Shown here one piece after another: positions 3,323 through 20,561 of a stretch of 64,000 nt of DNA. Under the pieces are notes generated by a model. That model was given only the letters and a program-made list of their open reading frames with translations, was not told the origin of the DNA and did no database searches. The stretch spans positions 288,001-352,000 of the forward strand of contig CAVTBR010000003.1 in NCBI GenBank assembly GCA_963733055.1, in the 5' to 3' direction. Every line of letters starts with the position of its first letter. Position 1 is the first letter of the stretch. Source of the DNA: Candidatus Bathyarchaeota archaeon. Lineage in GTDB: Archaea > Thermoproteota > Bathyarchaeia > 40CM-2-53-6. Made by a program: the position numbers and the translations under genes.

Positions 3323-4075
3323 TTAGAGCCCGGCGGAATCGTCTCTGAGCTCGGTTTTGGTTTGGCGTCGGAGTGGTATGGGGTTGAGGATTATGATTGC
3401 CGCTACTCCGCCTATGATGAGGGCGAGCACGAGGATGGTGTCAATTCTTTCGGTTGTGAAGAAGAGCCTGGGTGGCATTGACCGTATGTTGTATTGAGTA
3501 AATGTGTGACCTGTTTCGGAGTCTTGCCAGATGAGGACGCCGGTTTCTTTGTTTATGAATTGGAATGTTGTCGTTCCGGCACCCGCTAGCATTAGGTATA
3601 GATATACGTTGGGCAGGCCCATCTCGATGCTAAGGACTACGTCCACATACATCTTCGTGTGCCGGAAGTCGTTGTTGCCTTTGAAAAAGCCTACAATGTC
3701 TCCGGTCTTTGTGACGGTTGAATTGTAAAGCACGTCAACGAATGTGAGGCCGAAGCCTGCGTCGATTCTGTCGTCGCTATCATTGCCCGATAACCAACCG
3801 TGGCCGAGGAATTCGAGCACTCGTAATCCGTTGTTGTTCGTTCCGTATATGTCGTTGAACATTATCCTTGCCCAGTCGGCCGTTGAATCCATTATGATCC
3901 TGATCTCGGGGCTCTTCTGCCAGCCGGTGACCTGTACGTCAGATCTAGGGTTACTGTTCAACATCCGAACGACAAGGACTGTTGAACCTAAAACGACCAA
4001 GATGAGCAGCGAGACGAGTGAGATACCTTTCAGAATAGCCGTTTCATGTTTCCTGACGACTGCAACTCGAGGCAA
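3323..4075 (-). CDS. Hypothetical membrane-anchored protein (N- and C-terminal TM helices)
   Basis: 250-aa ORF, TTG start, abuts the downstream gene (1 nt gap); two hydrophobic segments flank a beta-rich domain. Confidence 0.7.
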   Translation of the reverse strand: MPRVAVVRKHETAILKGISLVSLLILVVLGSTVLVVRMLNSNPRSDVQVTGWQKSPEIRIIMDSTADWARIMFNDIYGTNNNGLRVLEFLGHGWLSGNDSDDRIDAGFGLTFVDVLYNSTVTKTGDIVGFFKGNNDFRHTKMYVDVVLSIEMGLPNVYLYLMLAGAGTTTFQFINKETGVLIWQDSETGHTFTQYNIRSMPPRLFFTTERIDTILVLALIIGGVAAIIILNPIPLRRQTKTELRDDSAGL

Positions 4076-4139: not shown

Positions 4140-4943
4140 TTAGCGAGTATTGGCCTGGAAGACTTTATCTTTCGGGTAGACTTCGATGCCAGTTTGACCA
4201 ATTTGGTATGGTCGTAGTTGGTCGTCGTGGCTGATCCCACGCATCTTCTCCACCTGAATCCCCCTGACGACGTTCCCATCGTGGACCATGGTGTGTAGTA
4301 GGACGACGCCTTGTGACAAATATTCTTCGATTTGAAATTGGCGTTCAAGCTCTGCGGTGCGTAGCTCACTGGTTACGATGCAGGAACAACCCGTTGATTC
4401 AAGGGCGTCGAAGAATAAGAGTAGGGCACGTCGCCTTTTGATTTCTTCAGGATAGCGAAGCATTAGTGACGTTATGGGGTCAACTACGATCCTCTGTGTT
4501 CCTTCCTCGGCAGCTATCCTGCGAATCGTTCGAACTAGCGATGGGAGGGTAAGTTCTGGCATGGTCAAAGTCACGGGATTGTCGCTGCCAATGTTGGGTT
4601 CCACGAACCTTTGACCCGGCCGTTTCAGGGGTGTCGCGTCTACAAATGTGAGCTTTCCCGCCTGTTCAAGAGAATCCAGGTCCCATCCGAATGATGTAAG
4701 ATCTACTTTCACGTGTTCGGGTTTCTCGTCGAGTGAGACATAGAGTCCGGTCTCGCCGGCTTTCGCGCCGCCAACGAGAAACTGTACCGCGAACGTGGTC
4801 TTTCCGGAGCCTGGGCTTCCAACGACAAGGATCGTTCTGCTCTTGGGCAGGCCGCCCCTCAATACTTCGTCTAAGCCCTTGATGCCAGTTGAAACCCGGT
4901 CCAACTCATTATCACTTAACTTGAGGAGAGTAGGGAATCTCAT
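4140..4943 (-). CDS. KaiC/RAD55-like RecA-superfamily ATPase (single domain)
   Basis: STGIKGLD...GG start, Walker A GSPGSGKT, SLDEK, Walker B IVVDP, EKMRG arginine-finger motif. Confidence 0.92.
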   Translation of the reverse strand: MRFPTLLKLSDNELDRVSTGIKGLDEVLRGGLPKSRTILVVGSPGSGKTTFAVQFLVGGAKAGETGLYVSLDEKPEHVKVDLTSFGWDLDSLEQAGKLTFVDATPLKRPGQRFVEPNIGSDNPVTLTMPELTLPSLVRTIRRIAAEEGTQRIVVDPITSLMLRYPEEIKRRRALLLFFDALESTGCSCIVTSELRTAELERQFQIEEYLSQGVVLLHTMVHDGNVVRGIQVEKMRGISHDDQLRPYQIGQTGIEVYPKDKVFQANTR

Positions 4944-5102: not shown

Positions 5103-8100
5103 TTAAACGCGTCTTCGTTTGAGTAGGTATAGTGATGCTGCTAACGCCGAGAATGCGACAACCGCGACTGCACTGAATTCTGGGACAGGGATGTTGCTCT
5201 GCTCCAGGTACACGTTCTGACCCGATCCGGTTTGGCCTGGTGAGACCGCGACGGACCAAGTTTGAGGCGCGTATCCTGGTTGGCTTATGCTAAACTTGTA
5301 GGTGCCTGGGGGTAGGAAGGCTTGGTAAACGCCGTCATAGGTGTAGAAGTTCCACGTAGCTCCACTAGCGCCAGTCACGCTGACTGTGCCCCAGCTGAGA
5401 GTGCGGAACTCGTTACTCCACGTGAAAGCGAGTACGTTGCCCGAAACGAACCCGTTCAGGTCAACTTCAAAGATAGCACTAGCTTCTCCACTGTTGTGTG
5501 TTCCTGCGATTTGCCAAACTCCTTCTTGCGAGTACGGGCCTAAGTGGTTCGCGGCCATCGAGTGGCCGACGAAGTTGCTGTTCAATGCCATGTCTTCCGT
5601 CAGGCTGATGCCTGAGGTTGCGGTCGTGCCTGGGATGATGTGATACGATTCACCCATCAGCAGACCGTTGACTGGCGGATAGTACTGCGCGAATAAGCCT
5701 GGTGTAGTTGCTACTTGTAGACCGCCGCTTGCAGCTTCTTGGAAGCCTGCGTTGGCGGAGTACCATGGGACGAAGTCGGCTTCAGCTGTCCATCCACCCG
5801 TGTAGTCTGGTGCACCCACTATGCCCGAGTTCGGGAATGGGTACATAGCGTACGCGGCTGGGTAGCAGTCGAGCTCGAAATCGCATGCGCCACCCTGTAG
5901 CGGGTCACCAAAGTAGACACCCGTAATGTCGCTTCCGAACGGTACCTGCTGCGGCAAACCTGCCAACAACACGTTGAGCAGAGTTGTACCGGAGGGTACG
6001 TAGTTGTAACCGTTCAATCCGGAGCGTGGTTGGTCGTATGGTGATCCACCCTGGGTGCTGAATGGGTAGTACGGTGCAGTTGGGTTAGCGAATCCATTGC
6101 CGTTCGGCGAAAGGACGCCGTTGGCCGCAGTAGCGTGGCCGCTATAGACACCGCCTGGGTTACCAAACGGTGCTGTATAGCCTGAGCCTGGATAGGTGCC
6201 CTCACTGGACATCCATTCAGCCACTAACTGGCCTTGGTCATTGAATAAGCGAACCCGCGCAGACATGTTCTGACTTGTCGGAGTGATGATGCTCTCTTTC
6301 TTGAATAAGATTTGGAGAGAAACGTTCACACCGATGATCAAGTTGATCTTCATGTCCGCAACCTGCCCGCACGCCGCATAGGCTGTGAAGTCTTTGTCCT
6401 GGACGTAGCCGTACGTATAGGCTGCGAGGTTGTATTGACCAGGGGCAAAGGCGAGCGGCCATACAGTGTACAGGCTGTTAAACATGCTATTCTTCAGGAG
6501 CTTGTTAGCTCTGAGGAAGCCGAACGAGCCTGACGTGTAGCCGCCCACGAAAGCATAGCGGGCTGATTGGCCGTAGTAGACATCATGCGAGTTACTGAAT
6601 CCCAATAGTACGTTGCGTCCACCACCGTCCATCTCAGCACAGTTCAACGAATAGCCCTGGGATGGGTTGAAGCAGTCGGTTCCGCCCGGTCCCTGGAAGA
6701 GACCGCCGAGGAGACCGCCTTCAGTATTACCCGGAACTTCGTTGAATGGTACGCTGAGTGGTAGGTAGCTTGGTTCTGGGCCGAAGTAGTCGGTTAGGGC
6801 TCCGGCTGTGCCGTTAGTTACTTTGTAGAATCCGACATCAATCTCAGATCCTAAGCAGCCGCCTAGAGCTAGGAAACCGTTTTGGCATCCGGACCAGACC
6901 CAGTTCCTACTGACGCGTGGTCGTTCCCAGTCGATGCTGTACACTGATACGTTGAAGCCTGGGCCTAGGAATAGGTGGTCACTGATAGCGGTTGGATTAC
7001 CGCTTAAGGTGACTGATACCTGTTGCAATGGAGCGACCGCACATGGAGCAGAATCATAGTAGCCGTTTGCGGCTACGTTCACTGTGTACGTACCCGAGGG
7101 GATGCCGTAATTGTCACCACCCCAAGTATCGTTGATGCCCCAGTACTGAATCGCCGCACGACCGGAAGCAATGGAGTTTGCGTTCAAACCAGCTTTGTCC
7201 AACGCGCCGCCAACATATGGCGTGCCCGCGCAGGACACGCTTGGAGCTCCGTTCTCACCGGACCCGTTGGGTCCGTTGAACGTGTTTCCGTTGGCGCCGA
7301 ATAGGAATCCGTCGTACGCGTATTGATCGTACGAGTTGCATCCGTTAGTGTAGTAGTAGTAGCTTATTCCGCCAGCACCAGTGTAGCCGAGGGCTGTTAC
7401 GTTGTATGAGTAGATGTTTCCATCAGCTCCTTGCAAGTATCCCCAGAGGAATCCTGCGACGGAGTGGATTGGGCTTGTTACGATGGTGTTCGGTGTGTCG
7501 TGGAAGTAGACGGTCTTGTTCACCCAGCTGCTCAAGCGAATGTCGATTGGTAATGTTACGTCTCCTGCCCACTCGTTGGGTGTTACGTCAAAGTAGTACT
7601 CCTGGAAGGTAGAACCGTCCAGAGCAGTTTGAACATAACGGAAGGTCCAGACACGTACATAGTACCTGCCTGCTGTGAGGCCGTTGATCCAAGTAGCGTA
7701 AACCTGCGGAACTTCTCCCGACAAGTCTCTTGGAGCACCGTACTCACCCTTCAAACCCATCTCAAAGTGGAACGGAGTAGCAGTACCACCAGCAACGAAC
7801 CATTGCTGCGGTGGACCAACACCTTGCGGGTCGGAAGCCAGCAGGGTGTTTCCTGCTTGGCTGCTAATGGCTACATCACGCGAGTAACCATTAATCGCAC
7901 CCGTGAAGGGGTTGGGGTTGTCACCGTAAGCAGCGCCGTTGACTGTGCTGTACTCATGCCATGGAAACGCAATTGCGCTTCCATCGTGTGGGTCACCGCA
8001 CAAATCAGCCGCGCGTCGGCCGTAGTAGTCCTCTTGGCCTCCCGCTACACAAGGTAGTGGAGTCCAGACGACTGGCGCACCGGCGCTCGGGTCAACTTGG

Positions 8101-9473
8101 TTGCTGAGTGTTGCGTTACTGTATAGCTCAATCTTGATGTATTGACCACCGTCTGGCCCGTTTGGCCATGGTTGGTCACCGAACTGGTGTTTCGTGAACA
8201 CGTTACCGTGAACCACGGGTCCTGGTTGCAGGAAACAGTCAAAGTGAAGTGACTGACCTTTGAGGACAGTTACTCCGCTATTGCACAGTACCTGCGGGTA
8301 GCCTGCGGCTTCAGCGTAGATGTCGTAAACGCCCGGTGCGAGGCCTTCTAGTTCATAGTGGCCGTTCGCCGTAGCGTTCACGAAAGCTTGGCTGTCGATC
8401 GTGCCTAGGTCCGGTCGGTTCTGACCCGTGTAGGGGTCGATGCGCATAGTCATGTGCGCCCAAACCTTGCCAGCCTCAGCGATCGGTAGTTGGTATAGGG
8501 TTGAGTTGTAGCCCGCATACCGGAGAGTTCCGGTTATGATGGCTGGATCAGTCTCACCCTTCACCAACACGACTGGCCAGTTCTGAGGTGGAACCCAAAC
8601 GAATGGGTTCTCATTGCTCGCTCCGTGGCCGGCCAGTGTTGGGCCAACGCCGTAGACGTTGCTGCTGCTGTATAGAGCCATTTTGAAGAAGTATCGTCCC
8701 GCGACGGACGGTGCGGTTACGCCGTTGATTCTGGCGTAGTACCATTCGCCTGCGGATGTGAAGTTGATGTATTGGTGGTTGTAGTATATGCTACCTCCGC
8801 TGTTAGCGTCGATGGTAGCATCTACTGTTATCGCAACCATAGTCCAGCCTGGCGCATATCTGTCGTTCGGGCCAAGCTTCGCAACAAGGTACCGGTCGTA
8901 ACTGTTGGTTAACGTCGAGACGATTTGTGAAGAATCGAGTGACGTTGCACCTGGTACGTTGAATTCGGGTGGGATAAGGATGAACCATGTATCCCAACCG
9001 AAAGTCTTCTTCAAAGGTGTCTGAATTTCACAGACTGTTGCGCTACCAGATATACATGCATGGTTCGCATTCGGCGACCAAGTGTCTGGTGTGCCCGTTG
9101 CGTTCATTGCGAAGATCAGGTCACCGGTCGAGTTCGTTAGTACTGCTCCGAATGGGGCATACGTGTCCGATTGAAGCTGATACCAACTGTTGCTCGGTGC
9201 ACCCGGAGGATTACCCTGCGGGTAAGGTGACTGATAACCTGGTGAGCAGCTTGCGCTCACTGTGTTCGGCATACCCTGATACGCACATTGACCGCTACCA
9301 GGCCAAACATAACCAATAGGCCCAGCAACATGCGGGTCAAAATTATGAATGTCGTATGGGGACGTTCCGGACAGGTTGCCTAACGTGAAGTGCGCTTGTG
9401 TTGGAACAATAATTGCGAATGTACTAATTAGGAATATAGCGATTGTTAGCGTTGCAGCTAATTTTTTCTGCAA
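5103..9473 (-). CDS. Large secreted surface protein with carboxypeptidase-regulatory-like (beta-sandwich) domains and a C-terminal PEF-CTERM-type sorting signal; candidate S-layer/major surface protein
   Basis: N-terminal signal peptide (MQKKLAATLTIAIFL...AQ/QA); G/N/Y/T-rich; GL.PG.Y.I.AEA.GY and LPPGTY...QPGY motifs; ends IPVPEF-hydrophobic helix-KRRRV. Confidence 0.8.
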   Translation of the reverse strand: MQKKLAATLTIAIFLISTFAIIVPTQAHFTLGNLSGTSPYDIHNFDPHVAGPIGYVWPGSGQCAYQGMPNTVSASCSPGYQSPYPQGNPPGAPSNSWYQLQSDTYAPFGAVLTNSTGDLIFAMNATGTPDTWSPNANHACISGSATVCEIQTPLKKTFGWDTWFILIPPEFNVPGATSLDSSQIVSTLTNSYDRYLVAKLGPNDRYAPGWTMVAITVDATIDANSGGSIYYNHQYINFTSAGEWYYARINGVTAPSVAGRYFFKMALYSSSNVYGVGPTLAGHGASNENPFVWVPPQNWPVVLVKGETDPAIITGTLRYAGYNSTLYQLPIAEAGKVWAHMTMRIDPYTGQNRPDLGTIDSQAFVNATANGHYELEGLAPGVYDIYAEAAGYPQVLCNSGVTVLKGQSLHFDCFLQPGPVVHGNVFTKHQFGDQPWPNGPDGGQYIKIELYSNATLSNQVDPSAGAPVVWTPLPCVAGGQEDYYGRRAADLCGDPHDGSAIAFPWHEYSTVNGAAYGDNPNPFTGAINGYSRDVAISSQAGNTLLASDPQGVGPPQQWFVAGGTATPFHFEMGLKGEYGAPRDLSGEVPQVYATWINGLTAGRYYVRVWTFRYVQTALDGSTFQEYYFDVTPNEWAGDVTLPIDIRLSSWVNKTVYFHDTPNTIVTSPIHSVAGFLWGYLQGADGNIYSYNVTALGYTGAGGISYYYYTNGCNSYDQYAYDGFLFGANGNTFNGPNGSGENGAPSVSCAGTPYVGGALDKAGLNANSIASGRAAIQYWGINDTWGGDNYGIPSGTYTVNVAANGYYDSAPCAVAPLQQVSVTLSGNPTAISDHLFLGPGFNVSVYSIDWERPRVSRNWVWSGCQNGFLALGGCLGSEIDVGFYKVTNGTAGALTDYFGPEPSYLPLSVPFNEVPGNTEGGLLGGLFQGPGGTDCFNPSQGYSLNCAEMDGGGRNVLLGFSNSHDVYYGQSARYAFVGGYTSGSFGFLRANKLLKNSMFNSLYTVWPLAFAPGQYNLAAYTYGYVQDKDFTAYAACGQVADMKINLIIGVNVSLQILFKKESIITPTSQNMSARVRLFNDQGQLVAEWMSSEGTYPGSGYTAPFGNPGGVYSGHATAANGVLSPNGNGFANPTAPYYPFSTQGGSPYDQPRSGLNGYNYVPSGTTLLNVLLAGLPQQVPFGSDITGVYFGDPLQGGACDFELDCYPAAYAMYPFPNSGIVGAPDYTGGWTAEADFVPWYSANAGFQEAASGGLQVATTPGLFAQYYPPVNGLLMGESYHIIPGTTATSGISLTEDMALNSNFVGHSMAANHLGPYSQEGVWQIAGTHNSGEASAIFEVDLNGFVSGNVLAFTWSNEFRTLSWGTVSVTGASGATWNFYTYDGVYQAFLPPGTYKFSISQPGYAPQTWSVAVSPGQTGSGQNVYLEQSNIPVPEFSAVAVVAFSALAASLYLLKRRRV

Positions 9474-9736: not shown

Positions 9737-11912
9737 ATGCGCGCCCGCATCCTCATCCTCACACTACTAATCCTCATACCCTTCCTGCTCGTTCCCCGGG
9801 CGCAGGCACAAACCACCCCCCAATACGTAATCCTCTACGCCCACGGCTACGGCAGCTCAGCTACTCTCACCGCCCTCCCACAATCCAACACTCAGAAAGC
9901 TGCGGACCTAACGAACGGCATGGACTTTAAACTCAGCCCCGTTCTCGGTCAAGATTTGCAAATTCAAGGGCCGGTTACGTTCAACGTCTACCTTCGCGCC
10001 AGCGGTCCCTTTGTCGGGACAGTCGGGGCGCAGTTAGCCGAAGTCGCGCCGGGCGGGTTGGAAACGCTCGTACCAGGCGCCAGGGTTGATACATTAATCT
10101 ACTTGAACACCGCGATGATTCCCGTAACCCTCGGTGTTGGACCCGCGATCACATACAAATTCCACGCGGGATCATCGATATTACTTCACATAGGCATTGC
10201 ACAAACCTCGGGAACCGCTAAACCCCTCTTGGTTTGGGACGACGCGAGCGCCCCTACAAGTGTAAAGATCCCGACAGTGGCTCCAGCCGATGTCGAGATC
10301 AAATATTTTGGCCAGAGAAATTTCGGCAGAATATTTGAAGCGGGCGTCAACGGGACTCAAGCGGTTCGCGTCAACGCAACGCTCACCGATGCGATTGGAG
10401 TATATCGGTTTAGCTCCGCCGCACTACGATTTACGGAGCAGAATGGAAGTAGCATCAGCGTACCGCTAAACCCCAAGAACACGACAGATTACTCCACCAC
10501 ATACACTGTTGCCTCGGATTTCGGGGAGGGACAGTGGCAGGGGAGTTTGCTTTTGCATGACTCGAGTGGAAACGATTACTCGTTCACTCAACCGTTTTGG
10601 GTCACCCAGTTCTACCCCGTCTCGATTGTTGTCTTGGCCTCCGACGGATCAAGCCTTTCGAACGCTACGCTAACCGTAGGCTTTGACGCGGAATCATTAT
10701 GGAGGTCGGTAACGAACTCAAGTGGTTGGAGTGCGCTAACGCTACCGTCCACCCAGGTTGTAGGGCCACTGAATCTGACGGTCTCATGGCTCGGCACCGA
10801 ATCTCTATTTCCCCTCGAAGTCACAAACGCCACAACGGTAACACTTCAACTAACGGTGTACTCACCCAGCATCAGAATCACATTACTCAACATCCCCGTG
10901 CCGTTCGCTAACGTAAGCCTCTACCAGACTAGCGAGGTGCAGCACGTGTCGACTGGGTTAGATGGGACTGCAAAATTTAGAAGCATCCCCGCGGGTGACT
11001 ACGTCGCCCGCGTCGACTATCTCTTCACATCATATCAAGCTCCCTCACTTCACGTGGGTCAGAACGGAGTAACCATAATCCAAGTCCCATTTCCTCACCG
11101 GACCATTACAACTACGACCTCTATAGCAATTATCGCAATGGCGTCCGTAGTTTTGATCCGGAGAAAACGAGGCAAACTGTACCCGACAAACTTCAACTAC
11201 TTCGCAGAGTTGACACACGGCGGTTTACCTGAAGCGTGCTTTGTTGTAATCGCCGGAAATTCGGGTTCAGGCAAAACGGTTCTTCTCAACTGCCTCGCCG
11301 CAGAACACCTTGCAACGGGCAGCTCAATCTACATAACCAACACAGAATACCCGGACAAAATTCGTGACGGCATGATGAGGCTTGGAGTAGGAAACGTCCC
11401 CGAAGTGAAGAACCCAGCACGCTTGATGTTCATCGACGCTTACTCAGCCGTGGGTGGAGGGAGTTCGATGGAAGAATTCTCAGTGAATTCACACACCGAT
11501 CTAACAAACCTAGGGATGAGCATATCAAAATGCCTTCAAGTTGCCGGCACTCGCGCGGACATCTACATGGACTCACTGAACCCTCTGACCACAGCGCTCC
11601 GGATTGATTACGTAATCAACTTCCTTCAAACCGTAGCCGCACGAGTCAAAGCAAACAACGGAAAGCTCTGCATAACCGTTGGCGCTGGCATCGATGATCA
11701 TGATATGACGAAACTTGAAGAATCTGCCGACTGCGTGATCGAAACCCAACTCAACGAATCCGGAGGGGGACAACGAAGGCGACTGAGAATAAAGAAACTT
11801 CGAGGCAAACCCTACATCGATCGCTGGACGCAATTCCGCAGTCGAACAAGACAAAGGCATCGTCTTCCTCACGCGAACCAAACCAACCAACCCACCCATC
11901 TTGGCAATCTAA
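9737..11912 (+). CDS. Signal peptide + large beta-rich ectodomain + single TM + cytoplasmic KaiC/RAD55-like ATPase (probable +1 indel near 11836; ORF track runs to 11959)
   Basis: Signal peptide MRARILILTLLIL...AQA; TM followed by RRKR; LTHGGLP, Walker A GNSGSGKT, FIDAYS, YMDSL, KKLRG. Removing one C restores the typical ending WTQFAVEQDKGIVFL...TAA at 11912. Confidence 0.85.
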
Positions 11913-12114
11913 AAGATCTTGGTCCCGAAGAATTAACTACTGCTCAGTTCGTGGCGTAATCAGATCTAATTCGGATTATCTATACGATCCTTTCGTCTGC
12001 CTGCTAGAATATGCTCTCCGACGGCTACTCGGAGAAGTACCTGGCTCCATGGAAAAACCGGTAACGTATGCCAAGCTTTAAGTTCAACTAAAAAATCGTA
12101 TTACTGGAATACAG

Positions 12115-12336
12115 TTGTACGTCGTGAAAGTTAAACAGAAAGGGCAGGTAACACTGCCTGCGGAGATACGGGACAAGATGCGAATCCAAGAGGGGTCCAT
12201 GCTTCAACTGGAGGAGATTGAGGGGGGCATCTTGCTGAGACCTGCAGCACCAATCAAGGCCGGAAAGGTGCGAGGGCCAGATGTCTACAAGAAAGTACTC
12301 AGTGAGCTTGATGAGTTGCGGAGAAACTGGCGTTGA
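12115..12336 (+). CDS. AbrB/MazE/SpoVT-family antitoxin
   Basis: VKVKQKGQVTLPAEIRDKMRI.EG swapped-hairpin signature; 4-nt overlap with the PIN gene. Confidence 0.88.
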   Translation: MYVVKVKQKGQVTLPAEIRDKMRIQEGSMLQLEEIEGGILLRPAAPIKAGKVRGPDVYKKVLSELDELRRNWR

Positions 12337-12728
12337 CTGGCGTTGCGGACACACGCCTGCTGCTCACGTTGGAATTCCCACCAAATGAAAAGATCAAGGG
12401 AGGTATAGAGAAACTTGTAGATAGGGAACTCTCGACACGACTTTTCGCTCCTTCAATAGTGCTCTCTGAATTCATCAAGATAGCGGGACGCAGGATAGGG
12501 GAGGAATCGGCCCTAGTGCGGATCAACCTACTCAAAGAAAGAGGCATGCGGGTTATTGCCGTAGACGAAGAAATGGCAATTGAAGCTGGGAAGACCCTAC
12601 TTACTACATCTGATGTACCGTTTGCTGAGGCTCTGATAGCCTCGCCGGTCAAGCTTGGTAAGGCGGATTATGTTGTTAGCGACGATCCACACTATGAGAA
12701 GATTGGAGTTGATTTGAAATGGATTTGA
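12333..12728 (+). CDS. vapC: PIN-domain (VapC-like) toxin
   Basis: VADT..L, VLSEF, PFAEALI, VVSDDPH acidic PIN motifs; 131 aa. Confidence 0.85.
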   Translation: MTGVADTRLLLTLEFPPNEKIKGGIEKLVDRELSTRLFAPSIVLSEFIKIAGRRIGEESALVRINLLKERGMRVIAVDEEMAIEAGKTLLTTSDVPFAEALIASPVKLGKADYVVSDDPHYEKIGVDLKWI

Positions 12729-12821: not shown

Positions 12822-15791
12822 CTATGTGTTGGCAAATTCCCGCGCGTTTCGCATTCCGCCGTCCTTTCGTTTCCGTTTGCCAGCCAAGAGGAGCAATCCG
12901 AATAGGAACCCGAGAATTATTCCTTCTACTGGGAAGCCGGGTATTGCGGGTATGCTTAGCTGAGTTGTGTATGATGCGACATATGTTCCCGGAGCGTTCA
13001 CGGTTAGCGGGCCTTGAGAGGTTCCTCCGGTGGAGTTTCGCCAGCCAGTGAATTTGTAGCTCTCGATTCCGGCCACGATTGTTTGGTTTAGTGATGGGTT
13101 GATTGCTGCGCCTTTCTCGACCCAGGCTTGGTAGTTTGCGTTCGCGGGTAAGGTGTAGGAAGCGTTGTTGAGATTTAGTGTAAGGACTGTAGAGTTGGGT
13201 AATCCACTAGCCGCGAGTGTCACTAAGTATTGTGTGCTCCATTGTGCAGTGATGGTCTTCGCTGAATTTACGCGTAGGGTCACGTTGTTTGATAGACCGG
13301 AAAGGTCGCCGGTCCAGCCGGTGAATGTTCTGCGGGTTGCGTTCGTGTAAGTGATTTGGGAGGGGACACTGATCGCCGCCTGTGTTCCCGCGTCATACCA
13401 GCCGGCGCCGATTGGGGAGCCGTATTGTGATTGTAGTGTGAGTAGATATTGCGTCTTCCACGCGGCTAACAGCCTTGTAGGGGAATTGACTGTAATTTGC
13501 GCTGTAGGGTTATGCCCTAGCGTTGTGGAGTTCCAGCCGTTGAATATCATACGTGTCCCATTCGCATATTGGACAGTGGATTGAACTCCAACTGTGACGA
13601 CGGTGCCGGAGTTATACCAACCTTGACCGCTCGGTGAACCGGTTGGTGAAATTATTGTTACGTAATATTGCTTGATCCAGTTCGCTTGCAGAGTTACTGG
13701 TTTACTCATCGTTACGCTCAGTGAGGTTGAGTTCGAGGCGAGGTCCCCGCTCCAAGAAGAGAACATGAACCTGGAGGCGTTGACGGTAACGTTCGAGGGG
13801 TTGTTGGCGGATACGGTTACGGTCGCGTTAGGTTTGTACCAGGCACTTGGTGTTGTGGTTCCGCCGTTCTGGTTTATGGCTAGCAGGTATTGGGTTGCGT
13901 AAAATGCTTGGAGGACGGTACCTGAGGTTACTGTGACTTGCCTTGGGTTGGCAGTGCTCCCGTCTCCCCATCCAGTGAAACTTTGCCTGACACCCTGGGA
14001 CGTGTTCACTGCTTGCTCAATCTGGACGGTTATTGTTCCGTTCGGGACGCTGGTTTGGAATTGACTTGAAGTTATGTTATACTTTGCACCGTTGATGAGC
14101 ACCCAAACGTTTCCCGTAACGGATACGTTGAGCGGAATGTTGATTGTCAGTGTTGGTCCGACGTTCAACGTGAACGTTGATACGTTATTGGCGCGGTTTG
14201 TATCGTTGATTGTGTTGCCGGGGTCGATTGTTATTTTGAACGTGTGGCTTCCCGCCGTTGAGACCCATGTGAAAGTTGTGGGCGTTGTTGCTCCGGCGCC
14301 TACGGTGACCGTGACGTTAGTGTAGGGTTGTGTGTCGAGGTTTACTGCGACTGGGACATTGTTCGCTGCCTGTGTGCCGTAGTTTGCGATTTGTATGGTA
14401 ATCGTTACCGTTGTGTTGGGGACGGTGATTACTTGTGGTTGGGCTGAAACGCTTGCGATGGCTAAGTCGATGTATGTCTGGTTCTGTTGCTGAATCGGTG
14501 GAGGCTGTCCTCCGCCTCTGTTCACGCTCACTTGGAATGAGTTACCCGTCTGACCCGTGACCGTTACGGACAAACCATTTGCGGTATCGGTGAATGTTTG
14601 CCCGACACTCCATGTAGCCTCATTTAGTTGCGATACACTCGGGTGGCCATTAATGACCCTCACCTTACCAATCAGCTGCGTACTGTCTACGTAAAGTATC
14701 AGCACCCCAGCCGCTGGGAGGCCTGAGTCGTAACCCGTCCCCGATCTAACCTCAATCAAATAATACTTGCTCGCCGGCACGCCAGTACCCAACGGTACCT
14801 CAACGGCGTGAACGCTACTGCTCGCAACCTCAGTAGGAATTATCGTGAAAGTGGACGTCACTCCGCTACTCGCTGTTGTGACCATCGACCCGCTCATAAA
14901 TCCTAATTGTAATTTTGACCAAGCGTCCATGTGCGATGGGCTTGAGCCCGGTGGGTTACCATTCCACAAGCCCTTATCCATCAAAGACCATGGGCCCATG
15001 ATAGTCTGACCTGTATTCGTATTGTAGAGATCAGGAAGACCTAATTGATGACCGAACTCATGGCAGTAGACTCCCAGCGGAACAGCTCCTCCTGCCTCCA
15101 TTTCTGGGACGATATTGAATTTTGTTAACGTTATTCCGTTCGAACAAGCGGTTGGGGTTGGTCGCACGTATACCCCACCCAGGTAAGTAACTGACCAGAC
15201 GTCGTCCTTAACGCCGCTCGACTCTTCCCCGTTCCCCGAATGCAAGAAGATGAAATAGTCGTAGTTTGCGAAGTTAATGTCCTTACACGCGAGATTGTAT
15301 GCGTCCTGCGCTATTTGCCACGACGCATCTTGGCCATCGCATCCCGCGTCATCTATAGCAAGGCAATCCTTTCCATAGTGGGCCTCAGCGTAGGGAAGCT
15401 TGTACCATCCGAAAACGTCACCCGTTATCGTGACTTTTCCATACGAGTCCTCAAGATAGTAGGAAGCCACCGATTGGCTGGAACCGAAATATTCCGACCT
15501 GATCTTGCTCGTGCTAACTGAAAAATTAATGTCAGTGAAGTAAGATGCGATTATCGCGAGCTTCAAAGTACCCGAAATCGGCGCCGGGTTAGCAACATAC
15601 CCAAGGGTTGGAACAGGTAGAGGCATGGCCGGTAGCGGAGTTGAATTTGACTTAGTCGATAATGCGGGTTCGTATACGGCCGTCGGGCGAATAGTCGTGG
15701 CGGCTGCCACGTGTGAACCGCTTGGTACGAAGACAAGCGCGAAGAGAACGAGTGCGACCACGATAATCTTCCGTACGATTTCTAATGCCAT
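12822..15791 (-). CDS. M6 (immune inhibitor A-like) metalloprotease with CARDB domain, stalk repeats and a C-terminal IPGFP sorting signal
   Basis: YY.EDSYGK, HSGNGEE, zinc motif HEFGHQLGLPDLY, WSLMDKG, YYLIEVR; CARDB-like DP.NTI.D.N.ANN; ends AIPGFP-TM-KRKR. Start taken as ATG 15791 (MALEIV..., signal peptide). Confidence 0.88.
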   Translation of the reverse strand: MALEIVRKIIVVALVLFALVFVPSGSHVAAATTIRPTAVYEPALSTKSNSTPLPAMPLPVPTLGYVANPAPISGTLKLAIIASYFTDINFSVSTSKIRSEYFGSSQSVASYYLEDSYGKVTITGDVFGWYKLPYAEAHYGKDCLAIDDAGCDGQDASWQIAQDAYNLACKDINFANYDYFIFLHSGNGEESSGVKDDVWSVTYLGGVYVRPTPTACSNGITLTKFNIVPEMEAGGAVPLGVYCHEFGHQLGLPDLYNTNTGQTIMGPWSLMDKGLWNGNPPGSSPSHMDAWSKLQLGFMSGSMVTTASSGVTSTFTIIPTEVASSSVHAVEVPLGTGVPASKYYLIEVRSGTGYDSGLPAAGVLILYVDSTQLIGKVRVINGHPSVSQLNEATWSVGQTFTDTANGLSVTVTGQTGNSFQVSVNRGGGQPPPIQQQNQTYIDLAIASVSAQPQVITVPNTTVTITIQIANYGTQAANNVPVAVNLDTQPYTNVTVTVGAGATTPTTFTWVSTAGSHTFKITIDPGNTINDTNRANNVSTFTLNVGPTLTINIPLNVSVTGNVWVLINGAKYNITSSQFQTSVPNGTITVQIEQAVNTSQGVRQSFTGWGDGSTANPRQVTVTSGTVLQAFYATQYLLAINQNGGTTTPSAWYKPNATVTVSANNPSNVTVNASRFMFSSWSGDLASNSTSLSVTMSKPVTLQANWIKQYYVTIISPTGSPSGQGWYNSGTVVTVGVQSTVQYANGTRMIFNGWNSTTLGHNPTAQITVNSPTRLLAAWKTQYLLTLQSQYGSPIGAGWYDAGTQAAISVPSQITYTNATRRTFTGWTGDLSGLSNNVTLRVNSAKTITAQWSTQYLVTLAASGLPNSTVLTLNLNNASYTLPANANYQAWVEKGAAINPSLNQTIVAGIESYKFTGWRNSTGGTSQGPLTVNAPGTYVASYTTQLSIPAIPGFPVEGIILGFLFGLLLLAGKRKRKDGGMRNAREFANT

Positions 15792-17816
15792 AGTCTCGCC
15801 GACCGAAGAGATAAGAGACGTGCAGGCGCGACGAAGATGGAGTGTTGGAGTGTGGCTACGAGGCTTTGCAATGCAGCAACGCTTGAGCTCAGGAAGATTA
15901 AGGCTAGTGAGATGGCCCAAACAATTGCAAGAGGGGTCAGGGTCTTGATGTTTGGTTGGCGTTTTGTTCTTGCTGATCGGTAGAACATTGCGACCGCGCT
16001 GACTGGGAGGACGTAGATCAGGCCAATGAACAGGCTTCCCAGTAGATAACCCGCTATTGGGGATCCGCCTGGGACGATAAACGCCGCTAGCAAATATCCG
16101 AACTTTGCCAGGGTTGCGGTGAGGCTGATCATCGGTGTCAGTTGCGGAATACTCCTTCCGATCATTAAACCATTACTCAAGAAAACAGAGGAGAGATCTG
16201 CATTGACCGTCATCGGTGTCGGAACTTGGTTTGATTTCAAACCAATGGCCGGAGCGCTACTAGGCGAGGCAGAGTACATCAGCCAAATGGTAATTGGTTG
16301 TGTGACATCAACGATTCCGCCAAATGTCTGGTTGTCCGCGCGGAGTTCCGAGAATGAGTAGTTCCCGGTCGGGGCCTGAACATGCTGATTTTGAACTGTA
16401 ATGGTCAACTGTTGATTCGCATCGACCCATTCCGTGATCGGGGTCGGGCCGGTGAGGGTGACTGGCTGATCACCGACGAGCACGTTTGTGCTGGCGTTCG
16501 CGGGTAACCCCGGTGCGCTTATGCTGAGGGCGTACTGCGTTTTCCATTCTGCGGTCACCTGCTTCCCAGAGTTCATAATCAACCACCCTCCGGGTGAAGT
16601 GGAATTCGAATCCCCATTCCACTGCAAAAAGACACGCCTAGTCCCGTTTCCAAAATCAAGAGTGCGATTACTCACAGTGAAAGTAGCGTTTGCCCCGGCC
16701 AAATACCAACCCGAACCTTGCGGGGCTCCGTAAGGGCTGTTGACGTTAAGCGCGTATTGATCGGTATACTTCGCCGTAATATCCAATGATGAGTTCATGA
16801 CAACTCTAAGCGGATTTGATTTTCCAAATTTGCCCCAATCAGAGAAGGTCAACTTCGAATTGTCGGGCCCGGGAATGTCCGACGGAACCTGCAAGGTTAT
16901 CCCTCCTCCAGGCACCGAGGCAGAGAGAACTCCCTTCTGGTTGGCTTGAAACGGGAACCCATCCACCGACACCATCAGATTCGGTACCCCGGTTCTTACG
17001 GTAACTTGATTTACGAAGTCACCTAACCGCCAACGTGCGTTTACGCTGATCCCGTTGAGTTTCAGGTAATCGTTCAACCGAAGCTGATGTTCAATGATAA
17101 CATGCGATGCGTCGCTGTTCTGCATGTAGAGAATCGCAAAATAATAGTTGCCTGCGGCATCTGTAAGGAGAGACCAGACTTCGTTGTAATCATTGGCACC
17201 GGTAAAGTATTGGTTGTAGAGCGGGTAGATCGTTAGTGCGTTTGTTCCATTCAGCCACGTACCGGACGTTGATGTGAGGTATAGCTGCGGGCCGAGCGCA
17301 GAGAGACCGTTCGTAACCTTAGCAACGGCTGGGATGCTTAGTTTCGGAAGTACTGGGGGACTCGCGGCTACCGTTCGATTGTAGACATGCTGAATGCCTT
17401 GAAACGTCCAAACCTGAATGTTGTTGGAAGCGTAGTCGTACCAGCGTAAGATGAACGGTTCGTTTGTGGAGTTGGTTAGGTAGAGAAAGCCTATCCGGAA
17501 GTTGGTCGCGGTGACGTTGACTAAGAAGAATATGTACTCTTTACCAGTGGGCCATTGAGATGTCACGTATCCCCAAGGCGTTAATCCCATCGATAGGTAA
17601 TCGTTTGCCGACAAAGTGCCACCCTGTGGTGAAATGCGGAGCGTGTACGCGCTCTGCCGTTCCGCCGGCATAGAAGTCCAGAAGCTGGTTCTGCCCCGGT
17701 GTCCCTGGTGAAGGGATGGTAAGATAGGCTTGTGCGCCGACGTACGGAAGTATGCTACCGAGCAGCATCAATGCGAACAGTAAACCGAAACAAACCTTTG
17801 GAGTCCTAACGCCCAT
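15782..17816 (-). CDS. Secreted/membrane surface protein with stalk repeats and C-terminal TM helices (one frameshift near 17655)
   Basis: ORF 17541-17816 supplies the signal peptide (MGVRTPKVCFGLLFALMLL...VGA); ORF 15782-17671 continues the body with the QYAL..SPYG.PQGSGWY repeat and 3-4 C-terminal TMs. Confidence 0.7.
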
Positions 17817-18007: not shown

Positions 18008-18487
18008 ATGAAGCCGACCCGGTACCTTCTCTTAGCGGGACTGACGATCGGAATGTTACTTCTAGGTACGGAACTGGCTAGTGTTAGCGCACAGCCGCAC
18101 GTCCAACAGGTATGGGGTGCGGGTGGCGGAGAAATCGTCGGCGCGGTTTATGGCATGACGTGGGATGATCAGCTTACCCCCATAGCGTGGGCTACAGTGA
18201 ACACGAACAACGGACGAACTACATTCGTAGCCTACAGTAGCGGAGGCGGCGATTACCAAATGTACCTCCCCCAAGGAACGTATAACGTCACAGTCGTCCA
18301 ACCAGGTTACGTACCGCAAAGTAGCGCCGTAGCCGTTGCACCTGGATCAGCGAGCACCATAAACTGGTATCTGGAAGAATCACACGTCCCAGTACCCGAG
18401 TTCCCATCAGGAATGGCATCAGCTATAGCCATCCTCGCGTTGGCCGCAGTCCTTGTCGCTGCGAGACGGACCAAACGCACGAAGTAA
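18008..18487 (+). CDS. Small secreted carboxypeptidase-regulatory-like domain protein with a PEF-CTERM-type sorting signal
   Basis: Signal peptide; LPQGTYNVTVVQPGY; ends VPVPEFP-hydrophobic helix-RRTKRTK. Confidence 0.85.
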   Translation: MKPTRYLLLAGLTIGMLLLGTELASVSAQPHVQQVWGAGGGEIVGAVYGMTWDDQLTPIAWATVNTNNGRTTFVAYSSGGGDYQMYLPQGTYNVTVVQPGYVPQSSAVAVAPGSASTINWYLEESHVPVPEFPSGMASAIAILALAAVLVAARRTKRTK

Positions 18488-18686
18488 ACCCCCACCTCTC
18501 CCACTCGTCTCTTCGTGGAGAATATGCCGCATTCACGAGGATTTCGTTGAACCGGGCGACGGAAACTTGATTCGTCGCAGAAACACAATTCGCACCCGCA
18601 CTACGCGTCGCTGGGCGACATCACACTCCCTTCAGTCTGTAGAATCCAGCAAGATTGATAATGCCCAAGCGTCGAGAATTGGGAGT

Positions 18687-19232
18687 ATGGAACCTAGCGC
18701 TTTTCACAAGGCTGCGGCTTTCGAGATCCTGAGGTTTCTTGGGATCACTTCCGCGATAGCTCTTGCATTCTACTATATCCCCAATTACTGGTTCCTAGAG
18801 AACATTACCGCCCAACACTCCGCCCTAGTGATGAACATGATTGGGATGAGGGCCACGGTTTGGTATCAGGGAGGCGAAGTTTTCGTAAACCAGTTTGATG
18901 TCCAGAGAATGTGCACCGGAGTACAAGTAATCGCTGTCTTTCTCGGAATCATCGTTGCACTTCCCAAAACCGCATTGAAGAAGAAAGTTCTAGCATTCGG
19001 GATCATAGCCATCAGCGTCTATCTCGCGAACATCGGAAGAATCGTTCTCGAGATCTGGCTACTATACAGCGGTACCCTACCCTGGTCGCTCGCCCATTAT
19101 CCAACCGGACTCATCCTGGGAGTTTTTGCCGTTGCTTTCCTGGTTGTTGTAGCGGATCATTTCATGCCCGCCATTGGTGACATGGCGCTCTCGGCGCTCG
19201 ATGGGTTCAGGAAACCAACATCGTCAAAGTAG
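18687..19232 (+). CDS. Archaeosortase (exosortase/archaeosortase family)
   Basis: Multi-TM protein with catalytic Cys in RMCTG, N..R in LANIGRIV, His in LAHYP; start taken as ATG 18687 behind GGGAG. Confidence 0.88.
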   Translation: MEPSAFHKAAAFEILRFLGITSAIALAFYYIPNYWFLENITAQHSALVMNMIGMRATVWYQGGEVFVNQFDVQRMCTGVQVIAVFLGIIVALPKTALKKKVLAFGIIAISVYLANIGRIVLEIWLLYSGTLPWSLAHYPTGLILGVFAVAFLVVVADHFMPAIGDMALSALDGFRKPTSSK

Positions 19233-19394: not shown

Positions 19395-20561
19395 ATGGTA
19401 AGAACGCAATCGATCTTGCTCATCATACTTGTCGCGTTGGCCCTGAGCCCGGTTGCCGTGGCCGTTTCGGCGTCGCCTAACCTTGGGCTGTTGCGAGTTG
19501 CGAGTTTTCTATGTCCTCGCCAGGTGGCACCGGGAGCCACTTTTCCAGTGAGTTTAGATGCGCAGTACGCAATTCAAGGTTTGCCGAACAGCGCAACAAT
19601 TCGCGGCGCAATTTACCCCGGGAACGATAACTCTTCCAGTCCATTATGGCAGAGCGATCCAACGTCGGTTTCGAATGGGGGCGATCAGGTTTGGAATATC
19701 ACCCTCACCGCGCCTCCAACTGAAGGATTCCTAAACCTCACCGCTTACGCCCTGTTCCTTGACAACGGAACTTGGAGATTCTTCAACGACCCAGTCAGTG
19801 GACCGGGCGTTAGCCATTCAACTATCAAAATTGGAAAAACCGCAAATCTCAACATAATTCTCGGCGCACCGAACGTCCCCGTAACCATCGACACCACAAC
19901 CGTCCAAACATCAGCTAACGGCGAAGCAAGCCTTCAGGTCGCGGTAGGTACCAGCCCTCTCGTGGATGTCCCGCCTACTGTGGAATTTCAGAATTCAACC
20001 CGAATCGTCTTCGTCCAATGGAGTGACGGCATTACTCAACCTCAACGCCACGTCCTGATCGACGGCGACATTACCCTTAGCCCTAATTACAAAACGCAAT
20101 ACCTTCTGAGGCTTACCACATCCAATTCAACCACTGATGCTTGGTACGATAAGGGGTCAAACGCGACGTTAACGGCTCCAGCGTCGGGTTCGGGTTCCTG
20201 GCCTCTGAATCTTTTCGGTGTCACTCAGACCTTCTCAGGTTGGGGCGGTGATGTTCACTCGTCGATTCCACGGCTGAACGTTACGATGGATTCACCAAAG
20301 ACAATAACCGCAAGTTACGCTGCCGATTACCTACCTCTTGCTGTACCAGTTGTATTCGGAGTTGGGATCGCCATTATCCTAATCGGCGTAGTCTTGGTGA
20401 TGCGACGAAGATCAAGCGTGGTGGCGCCTCCAGCAGAGGAACCCGTTCAGGCCACAGTCGAGGAGACGGTGGAAAAACAGACCCCCCCGACGTGTCCAAA
20501 TTGCGGACAAGAAACCGAACCAGAATGGGCGCATTGCATTAAATGCGGAACCAAACTATGA
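19395..20561 (+). CDS. Surface protein: signal peptide, ectodomain with stalk repeat, TM, cytoplasmic zinc ribbon
   Basis: YKTQYLL...WY..G repeat; TM then RRR; C-terminal CPNCG...CIKCG. Confidence 0.8.
   Translation: MVRTQSILLIILVALALSPVAVAVSASPNLGLLRVASFLCPRQVAPGATFPVSLDAQYAIQGLPNSATIRGAIYPGNDNSSSPLWQSDPTSVSNGGDQVWNITLTAPPTEGFLNLTAYALFLDNGTWRFFNDPVSGPGVSHSTIKIGKTANLNIILGAPNVPVTIDTTTVQTSANGEASLQVAVGTSPLVDVPPTVEFQNSTRIVFVQWSDGITQPQRHVLIDGDITLSPNYKTQYLLRLTTSNSTTDAWYDKGSNATLTAPASGSGSWPLNLFGVTQTFSGWGGDVHSSIPRLNVTMDSPKTITASYAADYLPLAVPVVFGVGIAIILIGVVLVMRRRSSVVAPPAEEPVQATVEETVEKQTPPTCPNCGQETEPEWAHCIKCGTKL

Follow-up and report, generated by a model that had tools for sequence, protein, structure and literature searches.

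A predicted single-pass membrane protein of Bathyarchaeia that joins a beta-sandwich ectodomain to a KaiC-like ATPase and is paired with a soluble KaiC

This study concerns a gene on the forward strand of a 64,000-nucleotide stretch (the window, to which all coordinates refer) of contig CAVTBR010000003.1, from the assembly GCA_963733055.1 of a Candidatus Bathyarchaeota archaeon from soil. The gene, whose open reading frame (ORF) starts with an ATG at 9737, is here called the membrane KaiC, since its product is, on its predicted topology, a type-I single-pass membrane protein of Bathyarchaeia, with beta domains outside the cell and a KaiC/RecA-like ATPase inside. Conservation of gene order indicates that it forms a two-gene module with a soluble KaiC and supplies the membrane half. 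Other Bathyarchaeia, moreover, carry the same KaiC subfamily with exchanged ectodomains (PKD, CARDB, Ig, CarboxypepD_reg), as judged from domain searches across its relatives.

The N-terminus resembles a signal peptide (residues 1-24, 9737..9808, + strand), in which MRAR is followed by a hydrophobic core and by AQA before a glutamine (MRARILILTLLILIPFLLVPRAQA/Q), the cleavage site being inferred rather than computed. In the AlphaFold2 model of the window's protein (residues 1-478, alignment of 79 rows, predicted local distance difference test score, pLDDT, 89.1), residues 2-17 form a helix followed by a low-confidence linker, and the homologs begin at the same place. The ectodomain that follows spans residues 25-453. 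Its roughly 430 residues are rich in Ser, Thr and N-x-S/T sequons, and it is modelled as all-beta and composed of four domains. A predicted transmembrane helix closes it (hydrophobic core 457-474, 11105..11158, + strand; TITTTTSIAIIAMASVVLI), modelled as helical from 455 to 477 and reaching a Kyte-Doolittle value of 1.94 over 19 residues. Directly after it stands the basic stop-transfer sequence RRKRGK (residues 475-480, 11159..11176, + strand), from which a short tether leads to the ATPase; all aligned family members share R476 and K480. Nine sequons are found in 428 ectodomain residues and one in 225 cytoplasmic residues, and cysteine is absent from the ectodomain and makes up 2.2% of the cytoplasmic part. 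The ATPase is placed inside the cell because of this distribution and of the basic cluster after the helix, so that the topology is called from such rules and not from a topology program. An earlier interpretation of the same DNA, made without database searches (the sequence-only reading), had listed the signal peptide, the ectodomain of about 430 residues, the helix with RRKR, and a KaiC domain with Walker A, Walker B, KKLRG and a TE in place of EE; all of these were confirmed by sequence inspection, Pfam and AlphaFold2.

The four ectodomain domains were compared by VIA-align with about 48,000 PDB representatives, and Foldseek was also run. The first domain (D1, residues 25-181, 9809..10279, + strand) is predicted to be a beta jelly roll with the PepX_C/CocE fold, resembling the C-terminal non-catalytic jelly roll of X-prolyl dipeptidyl peptidases and CocE-type hydrolases. 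Its Z scores are 17.2 against 8yzn_A (root-mean-square deviation, rmsd, 2.5 over 150 aligned residues), 15.6 against 6nff_A, 14.4 against 4pf1_A and 13.2 against 3i2f_A, with 142-152 residues aligned to these structures at rmsd 2.0-2.5; Pfam gave no match for D1 at E<=1, and no hydrolase domain is attached to it. The second (D2, residues 182-291, 10280..10609, + strand) is an Fn3/Ig/macroglobulin-like beta sandwich, with Z of about 9-10 against many Fn3, MG and Ig domains, a fold so common that no specific assignment follows. The third (D3, residues 292-374, 10610..10858, + strand) is a transthyretin/CarboxypepD_reg-like sandwich (Z 10.3 against 9hfj_A and 9.3 against 9yh9_B). The fourth (D4, residues 375-453, 10859..11095, + strand) is probably a CarboxypepD_reg domain, with a Pfam match slightly below the cut-off (PF13620, residues 385-444, 30.7 bits, cut-off 32.3) and structural matches to that fold (Z 12.5 against 3e8v_A, rmsd 1.9 over 76 aligned residues; 10.9 against 5aq0_B). 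The Foldseek matches of the ectodomain are mostly adhesins, pilins, complement MG arrays and the S-layer stalk SlaB.

The KaiC/RecA-like ATPase domain occupies residues 483-701 (11183..11839, + strand). Pfam KaiC (PF06745) matches residues 483-693 with 63.3 bits (cut-off 26.6, E 2.8e-17) over profile positions 2-210 of 231, the missing profile end being encoded in the +1 frame, and the AlphaFold2 model of the nearest relative, P0003 (91% identical), folds the ATPase domain confidently. All motifs lie on the + strand: Walker A, GNSGSGKT (residues 507-514, 11255-11278); the TE that replaces EE (11342-11347), located by a phmmer alignment of IYITNTEYP with IYVALEEHP of PH0284 (PDB 2dr3); Walker B, IYMDS (residues 609-613, 11561-11575); and KKLRG (residues 686-690, 11792-11806). 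Across 54 sequences of the sub-family, the Walker A glycine is kept in 54 and the lysine in 53, the Walker B aspartate in 54, K686 in 54 and R688 in 52; the second position of the former EE stays acidic in 50 of the 54, as E in 39 and as D in 11. The ATP site is, on these counts, under purifying selection. The positions that HMMER aligns with the phosphorylated Ser/Thr pair of KaiC are E661 (20/20) and E662 (19/20), so that an autokinase of the KaiC-CII type is not indicated. Two glutamates at these positions are the state of the CI half of KaiC and of most archaeal single-domain KaiCs. The domain thus resembles a nucleotide-binding, ring-competent ATPase, probably a slow one, and not a CII-type autokinase. 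The tether from RRKR to the first conserved KaiC motif (..ELTHGGLP) measures about 10 residues; a ring, if formed, would therefore lie flat against the membrane. A DUF7504 match (PF24336, 30.8 bits, cut-off 27) covers only profile positions 82-178 of 179 beneath the KaiC match, and recurs in nearly all relatives scanned. Among the PADLOC anti-phage models, only P-loop-level matches to mad8 were obtained (22.8 and 20.6 bits).

The complete layout is shared by 91 protein clusters, nearly all with the same Pfam set and with lengths near 723 amino acids (aa). The named clusters all belong to Bathyarchaeia except two, which derive from short contigs binned as Methylomirabilota and Acidoferrum. Among 401 sampled genomes of the class, a full-length profile matched 104 at E<=1e-20, and in 31 it did so near full length in one frame (from position 29 or earlier to 701 or later); many others match only the KaiC part, within ORFs of 575-1013 aa. 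The profile matched 19 of 22 further genomes of the window's own genus and 51 of 58 of its family. The receptor-like layout proposed in the sequence-only reading is accordingly a real fusion and not an assembly error, given the 91 clusters, the 31 genomes and the AlphaFold2 models.

The search for the same layout with exchanged ectodomains, which that reading had suggested as a check, found such forms on the same KaiC subfamily. Against 1.84 billion representative proteins, the cytoplasmic domain gave 646 matches at E<=0.001, of which 65 reach E<=1e-30, and most of the best ones are proteins of 530-1689 aa matched at their extreme C-terminus. A hydrophobic 19-mer stands just before the C-terminal KaiC domain in 74 of the 86 relatives examined, and is followed by at least three Lys or Arg in 72 of those 74. 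All 35 long relatives scanned with Pfam end in KaiC and DUF7504. Their ectodomains carry PKD repeats in 21 cases, CARDB alone in one, CarboxypepD_reg in eight and no recognised domain in five; the named PKD-type members are also Bathyarchaeia, and automatic annotation labels relatives as 'PKD repeat protein/KaiC/GvpD/RAD55 family RecA-like ATPase'. A quick maximum-likelihood tree (Shimodaira-Hasegawa-like approximate likelihood ratio support, midpoint root) places all 69 membrane-type domains within one set of 86 rows (support 98). This set splits into a PKD/CARDB sub-clade and a jelly-roll/CarboxypepD_reg sub-clade that holds the window's protein (support 99).

The window's genome (G000) contains 37 KaiC-profile matches. 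Other membrane-linked forms occur among them: seven transmembrane helices and KaiC at C3:564562 (512-aa frame), four and KaiC at C1:341781 (412 aa), and one and KaiC at C1:813923 (314 aa). A suspected paralog at C3:218737, a 723-aa frame with a weak KaiC match, proved to be a double AAA+ ATPase.

The candidate partner is a soluble single-domain KaiC of 267 aa (4140-4943, - strand), matched by the full Pfam KaiC profile at E 7.6e-59; it has DE where EE is expected and is canonical otherwise. Orthologs of it (40-84% identical) lie adjacent to the membrane KaiC or within about 6 kb in 17 of the 21 loci with enough flanking sequence. They are present in the loci L003, L007, L009, L012, L013, L015 and L016 of full-length relatives, while six other such loci end too early for a judgement. 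In ten of 11 distant loci, where the ectodomains differ, the membrane KaiC and a soluble-KaiC ortholog are neighbours in tail-to-tail orientation. In the genomes of L004, L005, L006, L008 and L011, the best soluble ortholog is on another contig. A predicted complex of P0003 residues 468-723 with the window's soluble KaiC scored 0.02 and 0.12 against a mark of 0.32, and, having been run without controls, speaks neither for nor against binding.

Several known systems share parts of this design. PH0284 of Pyrococcus horikoshii is the closest solved relative (E 2.2e-11, residues 18-223 of the cytoplasmic part). The two proteins have in common one RecA/KaiC domain, the Walker A and B motifs and a K-x-R-G finger (KMRG in PH0284), but PH0284 is soluble and keeps EE, whereas the membrane KaiC has TE and is tethered to a transmembrane helix and a 430-aa ectodomain. 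According to PMC5019145, PH0284 was crystallised as a hexameric ring, and ArlH/FlaH has ATP bound, with undetectable hydrolysis, and acts through nucleotide-dependent protein contacts. Autophosphorylation of ArlH has been reported to control its oligomerisation (bioRxiv 10.1101/2021.03.19.436134). ArlH/FlaH has a single KaiC-like domain, as the membrane KaiC does, but is soluble; the NCBIfam ArlH model (NF052589) scored 35.8 bits against a cut-off of 215, and the neighbours scanned included no archaellum gene. Circadian KaiC belongs to the same Pfam family, and its Walker motifs and the Lys and Arg of KLRG, which we take to be K224 and R226, align with the membrane KaiC. It has two domains instead of one, however, and a Ser/Thr pair at the phosphosites where the membrane KaiC has E661 and E662, and the circadian models NF006799 and TIGR02655 scored 46.6 bits (cut-off 408) and 20.1 bits (cut-off 546). 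Eukaryotic receptor-like kinases and bacterial PknB-type kinases are alike in topology alone, with a modular ectodomain, one transmembrane helix, a cytoplasmic nucleotide-using domain and likely oligomerisation. Pfam recognises neither a protein-kinase nor a histidine-kinase domain in the membrane KaiC, so that the relation is one of analogy and not of family membership.

The idea of KaiC-like ATPases as signalling hubs reportedly originates with Makarova, Galperin and Koonin (mBio, 2017). On this view, archaeal KaiC paralogs that have multiplied and in part lost activity, and that are joined to input and output domains or lie next to them, are proposed to form signalling networks (as summarised in PMC5847659). 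The membrane KaiC fits this proposal conceptually, and the forms with several transmembrane helices at C3:564562 and C1:341781 have a different layout. In the titles and abstract openings of the literature searched, no single-pass ectodomain-helix-KaiC protein and no pairing with a soluble KaiC is described, although the full text of the 2017 hub proposal may list membrane-fused forms. A 2015 survey of membrane proteins (PMC5898192) makes no mention of 'KaiC'. The concept of KaiC-like signalling has probably been anticipated, and what may be new is a KaiC-like signalling ATPase built as a modular single-pass receptor and paired with its own soluble KaiC.

Because of the receptor-like modularity, the conserved ATP site and Lys/Arg residues, the pairing with a soluble KaiC and the precedent of ArlH/FlaH, the membrane KaiC may be a transmembrane switch that senses the envelope or contact and acts together with the soluble KaiC; this reading has about an even chance of being right. 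Outside the cell, a glycoprotein-like stalk made of the jelly-roll head, the Fn3/Ig-like domain and two CarboxypepD_reg-like domains would engage an envelope component, or else a surface or glycan outside. Inside, the engagement would alter the clustering or ATP state of a presumably ring-forming RecA ATPase of the KaiC-CI kind, which keeps its nucleotide-binding motifs and trans-acting Lys/Arg and has lost the first catalytic glutamate. The altered state would be relayed to the soluble KaiC as the output switch, and ATP binding with slow turnover could keep time, on the model of ArlH and KaiC. Four parts of this scheme are our inference: the formation of oligomers, the meeting of the two KaiCs, the nature of the stimulus and the way the signal runs.

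A number of observations count against a switch of this kind. Beta sandwiches of an adhesin- or S-layer-like kind make up the whole ectodomain, in which neither Pfam nor the structure scan recognised a small-ligand sensor domain. The position of the first catalytic glutamate is never E in the 54 sub-family sequences (T in 40, V in 8, I in 2, M in 1, A in 1, and others), so that ATP turnover may be very slow or absent, and five of the 86 relatives have lost Walker A, the other 81 keeping GxxxxGK[ST]. L005, L006 and L008 lack the soluble partner within 10 kb, and the exception among the distant loci, L038, is a second copy without an adjoining partner. The quick tree puts the partners in a clade of canonical KaiCs, separate from the membrane type, whose closest paralog they are not; the pair thus did not arise by recent tandem duplication. 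In the distant loci, the pair has no conserved regulator or output gene at its side, and the window's own copy is frameshifted.

The surroundings of the gene bear on the alternatives. As the sequence-only reading had noted, the membrane KaiC is divergent from the gene of a giant surface protein (5103-9473, - strand; 1456 aa, ending in IPVPEF, a transmembrane stretch and KRRRV), from which it is separated by 263 bp, and 12 of 16 related loci have the same divergent neighbour. An island conserved in the window's genus encloses the pair; it comprises GT87-like and PTPS_related membrane glycosyltransferases (GT-C), the soluble KaiC, the giant surface protein, the membrane KaiC, a two-helix membrane protein of unknown function and a surface protein that has an M6-type metalloprotease domain and ends in a PGF-like tail. 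Four more genes follow downstream in 13 of 14 loci with flanking sequence; they encode a membrane protein of 629 aa, a small CarboxypepD_reg protein with a PEF tail (18008-18487, + strand), an archaeosortase-family protein (18453-19232, + strand; TIGR04178, 40.6 bits, cut-off 23) and a zinc-ribbon membrane protein. The giant and the small surface protein both end in S[HN][VI]PVPEF, a transmembrane stretch and Arg/Lys, near-identical across relatives, and these tails and the archaeosortase-family gene look like a sorting system with its substrates. The suspected link to the envelope was thereby upheld, with PEF-tailed proteins, an archaeosortase-like gene and glycosyltransferases around the gene. 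Neighbours vary in the distant loci, an exosortase-family gene being adjacent in L033 and L036, GT2 in L036 and L040, and GT4 in L037.

Further features of the island were recorded. The metalloprotease-type surface protein (12822-15920, - strand; 1032 aa) contains HEFGH, CARDB and the tail IPGFPVE followed by a transmembrane stretch and KRKRK, and its homologs in L005, L007 and L008 have PPIPGFP tails; with IPGFPVE-type and PEF-type tails side by side, the island would hold two kinds of sorting signal. This gene and those at 15782-17671 and 19395-20561 share a repeated domain of about 130-180 residues, seen as tblastn cross-matches and without a Pfam model. The two-helix protein (3323-4075, - strand; 250 aa) has its transmembrane segments at the N- and C-terminus, matches no family and stands beside the soluble KaiC in L003, L007, L009, L012, L013 and L015. 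Right after the membrane KaiC, 12115-12728 encodes an AbrB-type antitoxin-like ORF (73 aa) and a PIN gene (131 aa, Pfam E 2.9e-07), a pair unmatched by tblastn in 16 of 16 related loci, which therefore looks like a local toxin-antitoxin insertion. In L030, L035 and L039 (genus g2), an APH-family phosphotransferase-like gene (236-261 aa) and a zinc alcohol dehydrogenase lie near the KaiC pair, which may be plain synteny.

Within the membrane KaiC itself, a conserved motif, VPFPHR, precedes the helix (residues 450-455, 11084..11101, + strand). Among 20 aligned family members, V450, P451 and P453 are invariant and H454 is conserved in at least 90%, and the motif recurs in the window's sub-clade. 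The PKD/CARDB-type receptor KaiCs (P0138-P0179; L031, L032, L034, L037) show ..FDW.. at the juxtamembrane position and then LPYxIP at the start of the helix, replacing VPxPH.

Instead of sensing anything, the protein could be a structural anchor or organiser, in which a SlaB-like stalk holds or spaces the surface layer and the KaiC domain couples it to cytoplasmic partners or to ATP-dependent assembly or quality control. The stalk-like sandwiches that make up the whole ectodomain, the divergent giant surface gene in most related loci and the surrounding genes for PEF/PGF-tailed proteins, archaeosortase-like protein and glycosyltransferases would all suit such a role, and SlaB (8qox_B) is among the structural matches (Foldseek E 2.0e-06; VIA-align Z 9.6, rmsd 12.8). 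That match is, however, no better than those to many unrelated sandwich arrays, the giant gene is missing from the distant loci, and the swapping of ectodomains between lineages while the KaiC pair stays fits receptors better than a fixed structural part; a purely structural role is accordingly considered unlikely. Intact Walker motifs, a Lys/Arg finger typical of ring ATPases and the same envelope context could also be expected of a membrane-anchored hexameric motor that pulls, exports or inserts surface proteins. Each subunit would nevertheless contribute only one transmembrane helix, with no conserved gene for a partner channel, the first catalytic glutamate is lost, and the closest solved relatives and ArlH are switch-like and not translocases, which makes a motor highly improbable.

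The island's archaeosortase offers another role for the membrane KaiC, that of its client or regulator, either cut at VPFPH to leave a stub of helix and KaiC, or docking onto it and so coupling sorting to ATP state. The motif, invariant in the sub-clade, mimics with the helix and RRKR the tripartite signal of [VI]PVPEF, helix and basic residues. Near-identical S[HN][VI]PVPEF tails with a helix and RRR occur in the window, L001-L009, L011-L013 and L015, the archaeosortase-family gene belongs to the island in 13 of 14 loci, and an exosortase-family gene is directly beside the membrane KaiC in L033 and L036. Against this stands first the position of the segment. Known archaeosortase signals lie at the extreme C-terminus, as do the true tails of the neighbours, whereas VPFPHR with its helix and RRKR is internal, with about 245 residues downstream, and so lacks the form of a substrate. 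The likeness to PEF tails is, moreover, short: by BLASTP, the ectodomain has no significant similarity to the giant or the small PEF protein (best E 0.40, for the VPFPH stretch, and 1.1). VPxP is missing in L033 and L036 despite the adjacent exosortase gene, the other distant members have another motif or none, PKD-type relatives differ at this position, and in eight of the 11 distant loci no sortase gene lies closer than about 5 kb. The role of sortase client or regulator is therefore very unlikely.

A last alternative concerns the window's copy alone. The sequence-only reading had taken 9737-11912 as one gene frame, and this did not hold, for an extra base at about 11838..11840 (+ strand) splits it. 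Frame 0 runs open to 11959 and would give a 740-aa product, whose final 39 residues (11840..11959, + strand) match no relative. The stop at 11910-11912 belongs to the +1 frame, which encodes the conserved end of 23 codons, VEQDKGIVFLTRTKPTNPPILAI* (11841..11912, + strand); homologs are mostly 723 aa long and end in the same way, in ...DRWTQFRVEQDKGIVFLTRTKPTNPPxLAI, and without the extra base the window's product would have 724 aa. By blastn, six of six aligned relatives (L001, L002, L004, L007, L008, L009) have one base fewer, the site reading TTCCGCAGTCGAA in the window and TTTCGC-GTCGAA in L001, and the full-length profile match of the window's genome ends at 701 of 716, where other genomes reach 705-716. 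The shifted codons correspond in the P0003 model to the final ATPase strands (E697-702 and E706-711, pLDDT about 87-91), so that the change, if real, should be damaging, as it strips the last beta strands of the fold. A search of public sequencing runs gave no RNA run and one DNA run, which contains 8% of the sampled words and whose three 151-base contigs miss 11784-11867.

The frameshift might be real and the gene recently broken, the organism having lost or being in the course of losing a function that the family keeps elsewhere. The extra base lies outside any homopolymer run, and broken orthologs are found in other assemblies, one split into two frames (G333:C20:113785-115927) and one interrupted by an in-frame TAA (G325:C16:514968-517112). 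Yet the remaining 701 codons are undamaged, with 91% identity to the nearest relative, and a second conserved KaiC gene of the same assembly (three contigs, 2.88 Mb; C3, about 388.6 kb) has a single frame break, a pattern of two such breaks in conserved genes that suits assembly indels. Recent loss is thus possible, though it falls well short of being probable. That second gene (C3:387700-389250, outside the window) encodes a two-domain KaiC, the second domain of which carries on, beyond ...ANARKG(R/E), in a different frame.

Classical two-component systems and receptor kinases are scarce in archaea, where transmembrane sensing is largely an open matter; we know of no KaiC membrane receptor form that has been characterised. 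The family described here offers clear domain borders, confident models, natural ectodomain swaps and a specific candidate partner, so that the proposal of a transmembrane KaiC switch could be tested with recombinant proteins although the organisms are uncultured. It also links the KaiC module to an island for surface-protein sorting and glycosylation in a group whose envelope is uncharacterised. The fullest version of the idea is a split two-tier KaiC switch, with exchangeable adhesin-like receptors, a CI-like ring that docks a dedicated soluble KaiC, and an internal copy of a sorting signal that is cut or bound by the archaeosortase; taken as a whole, this is distinctly unlikely. If it were true, the split KaiC switch would be an archaeal counterpart of receptor kinases, and cutting or binding of VPFPH, the helix and RRKR by the archaeosortase would tie the sorting of surface proteins to a cytoplasmic ATP switch.

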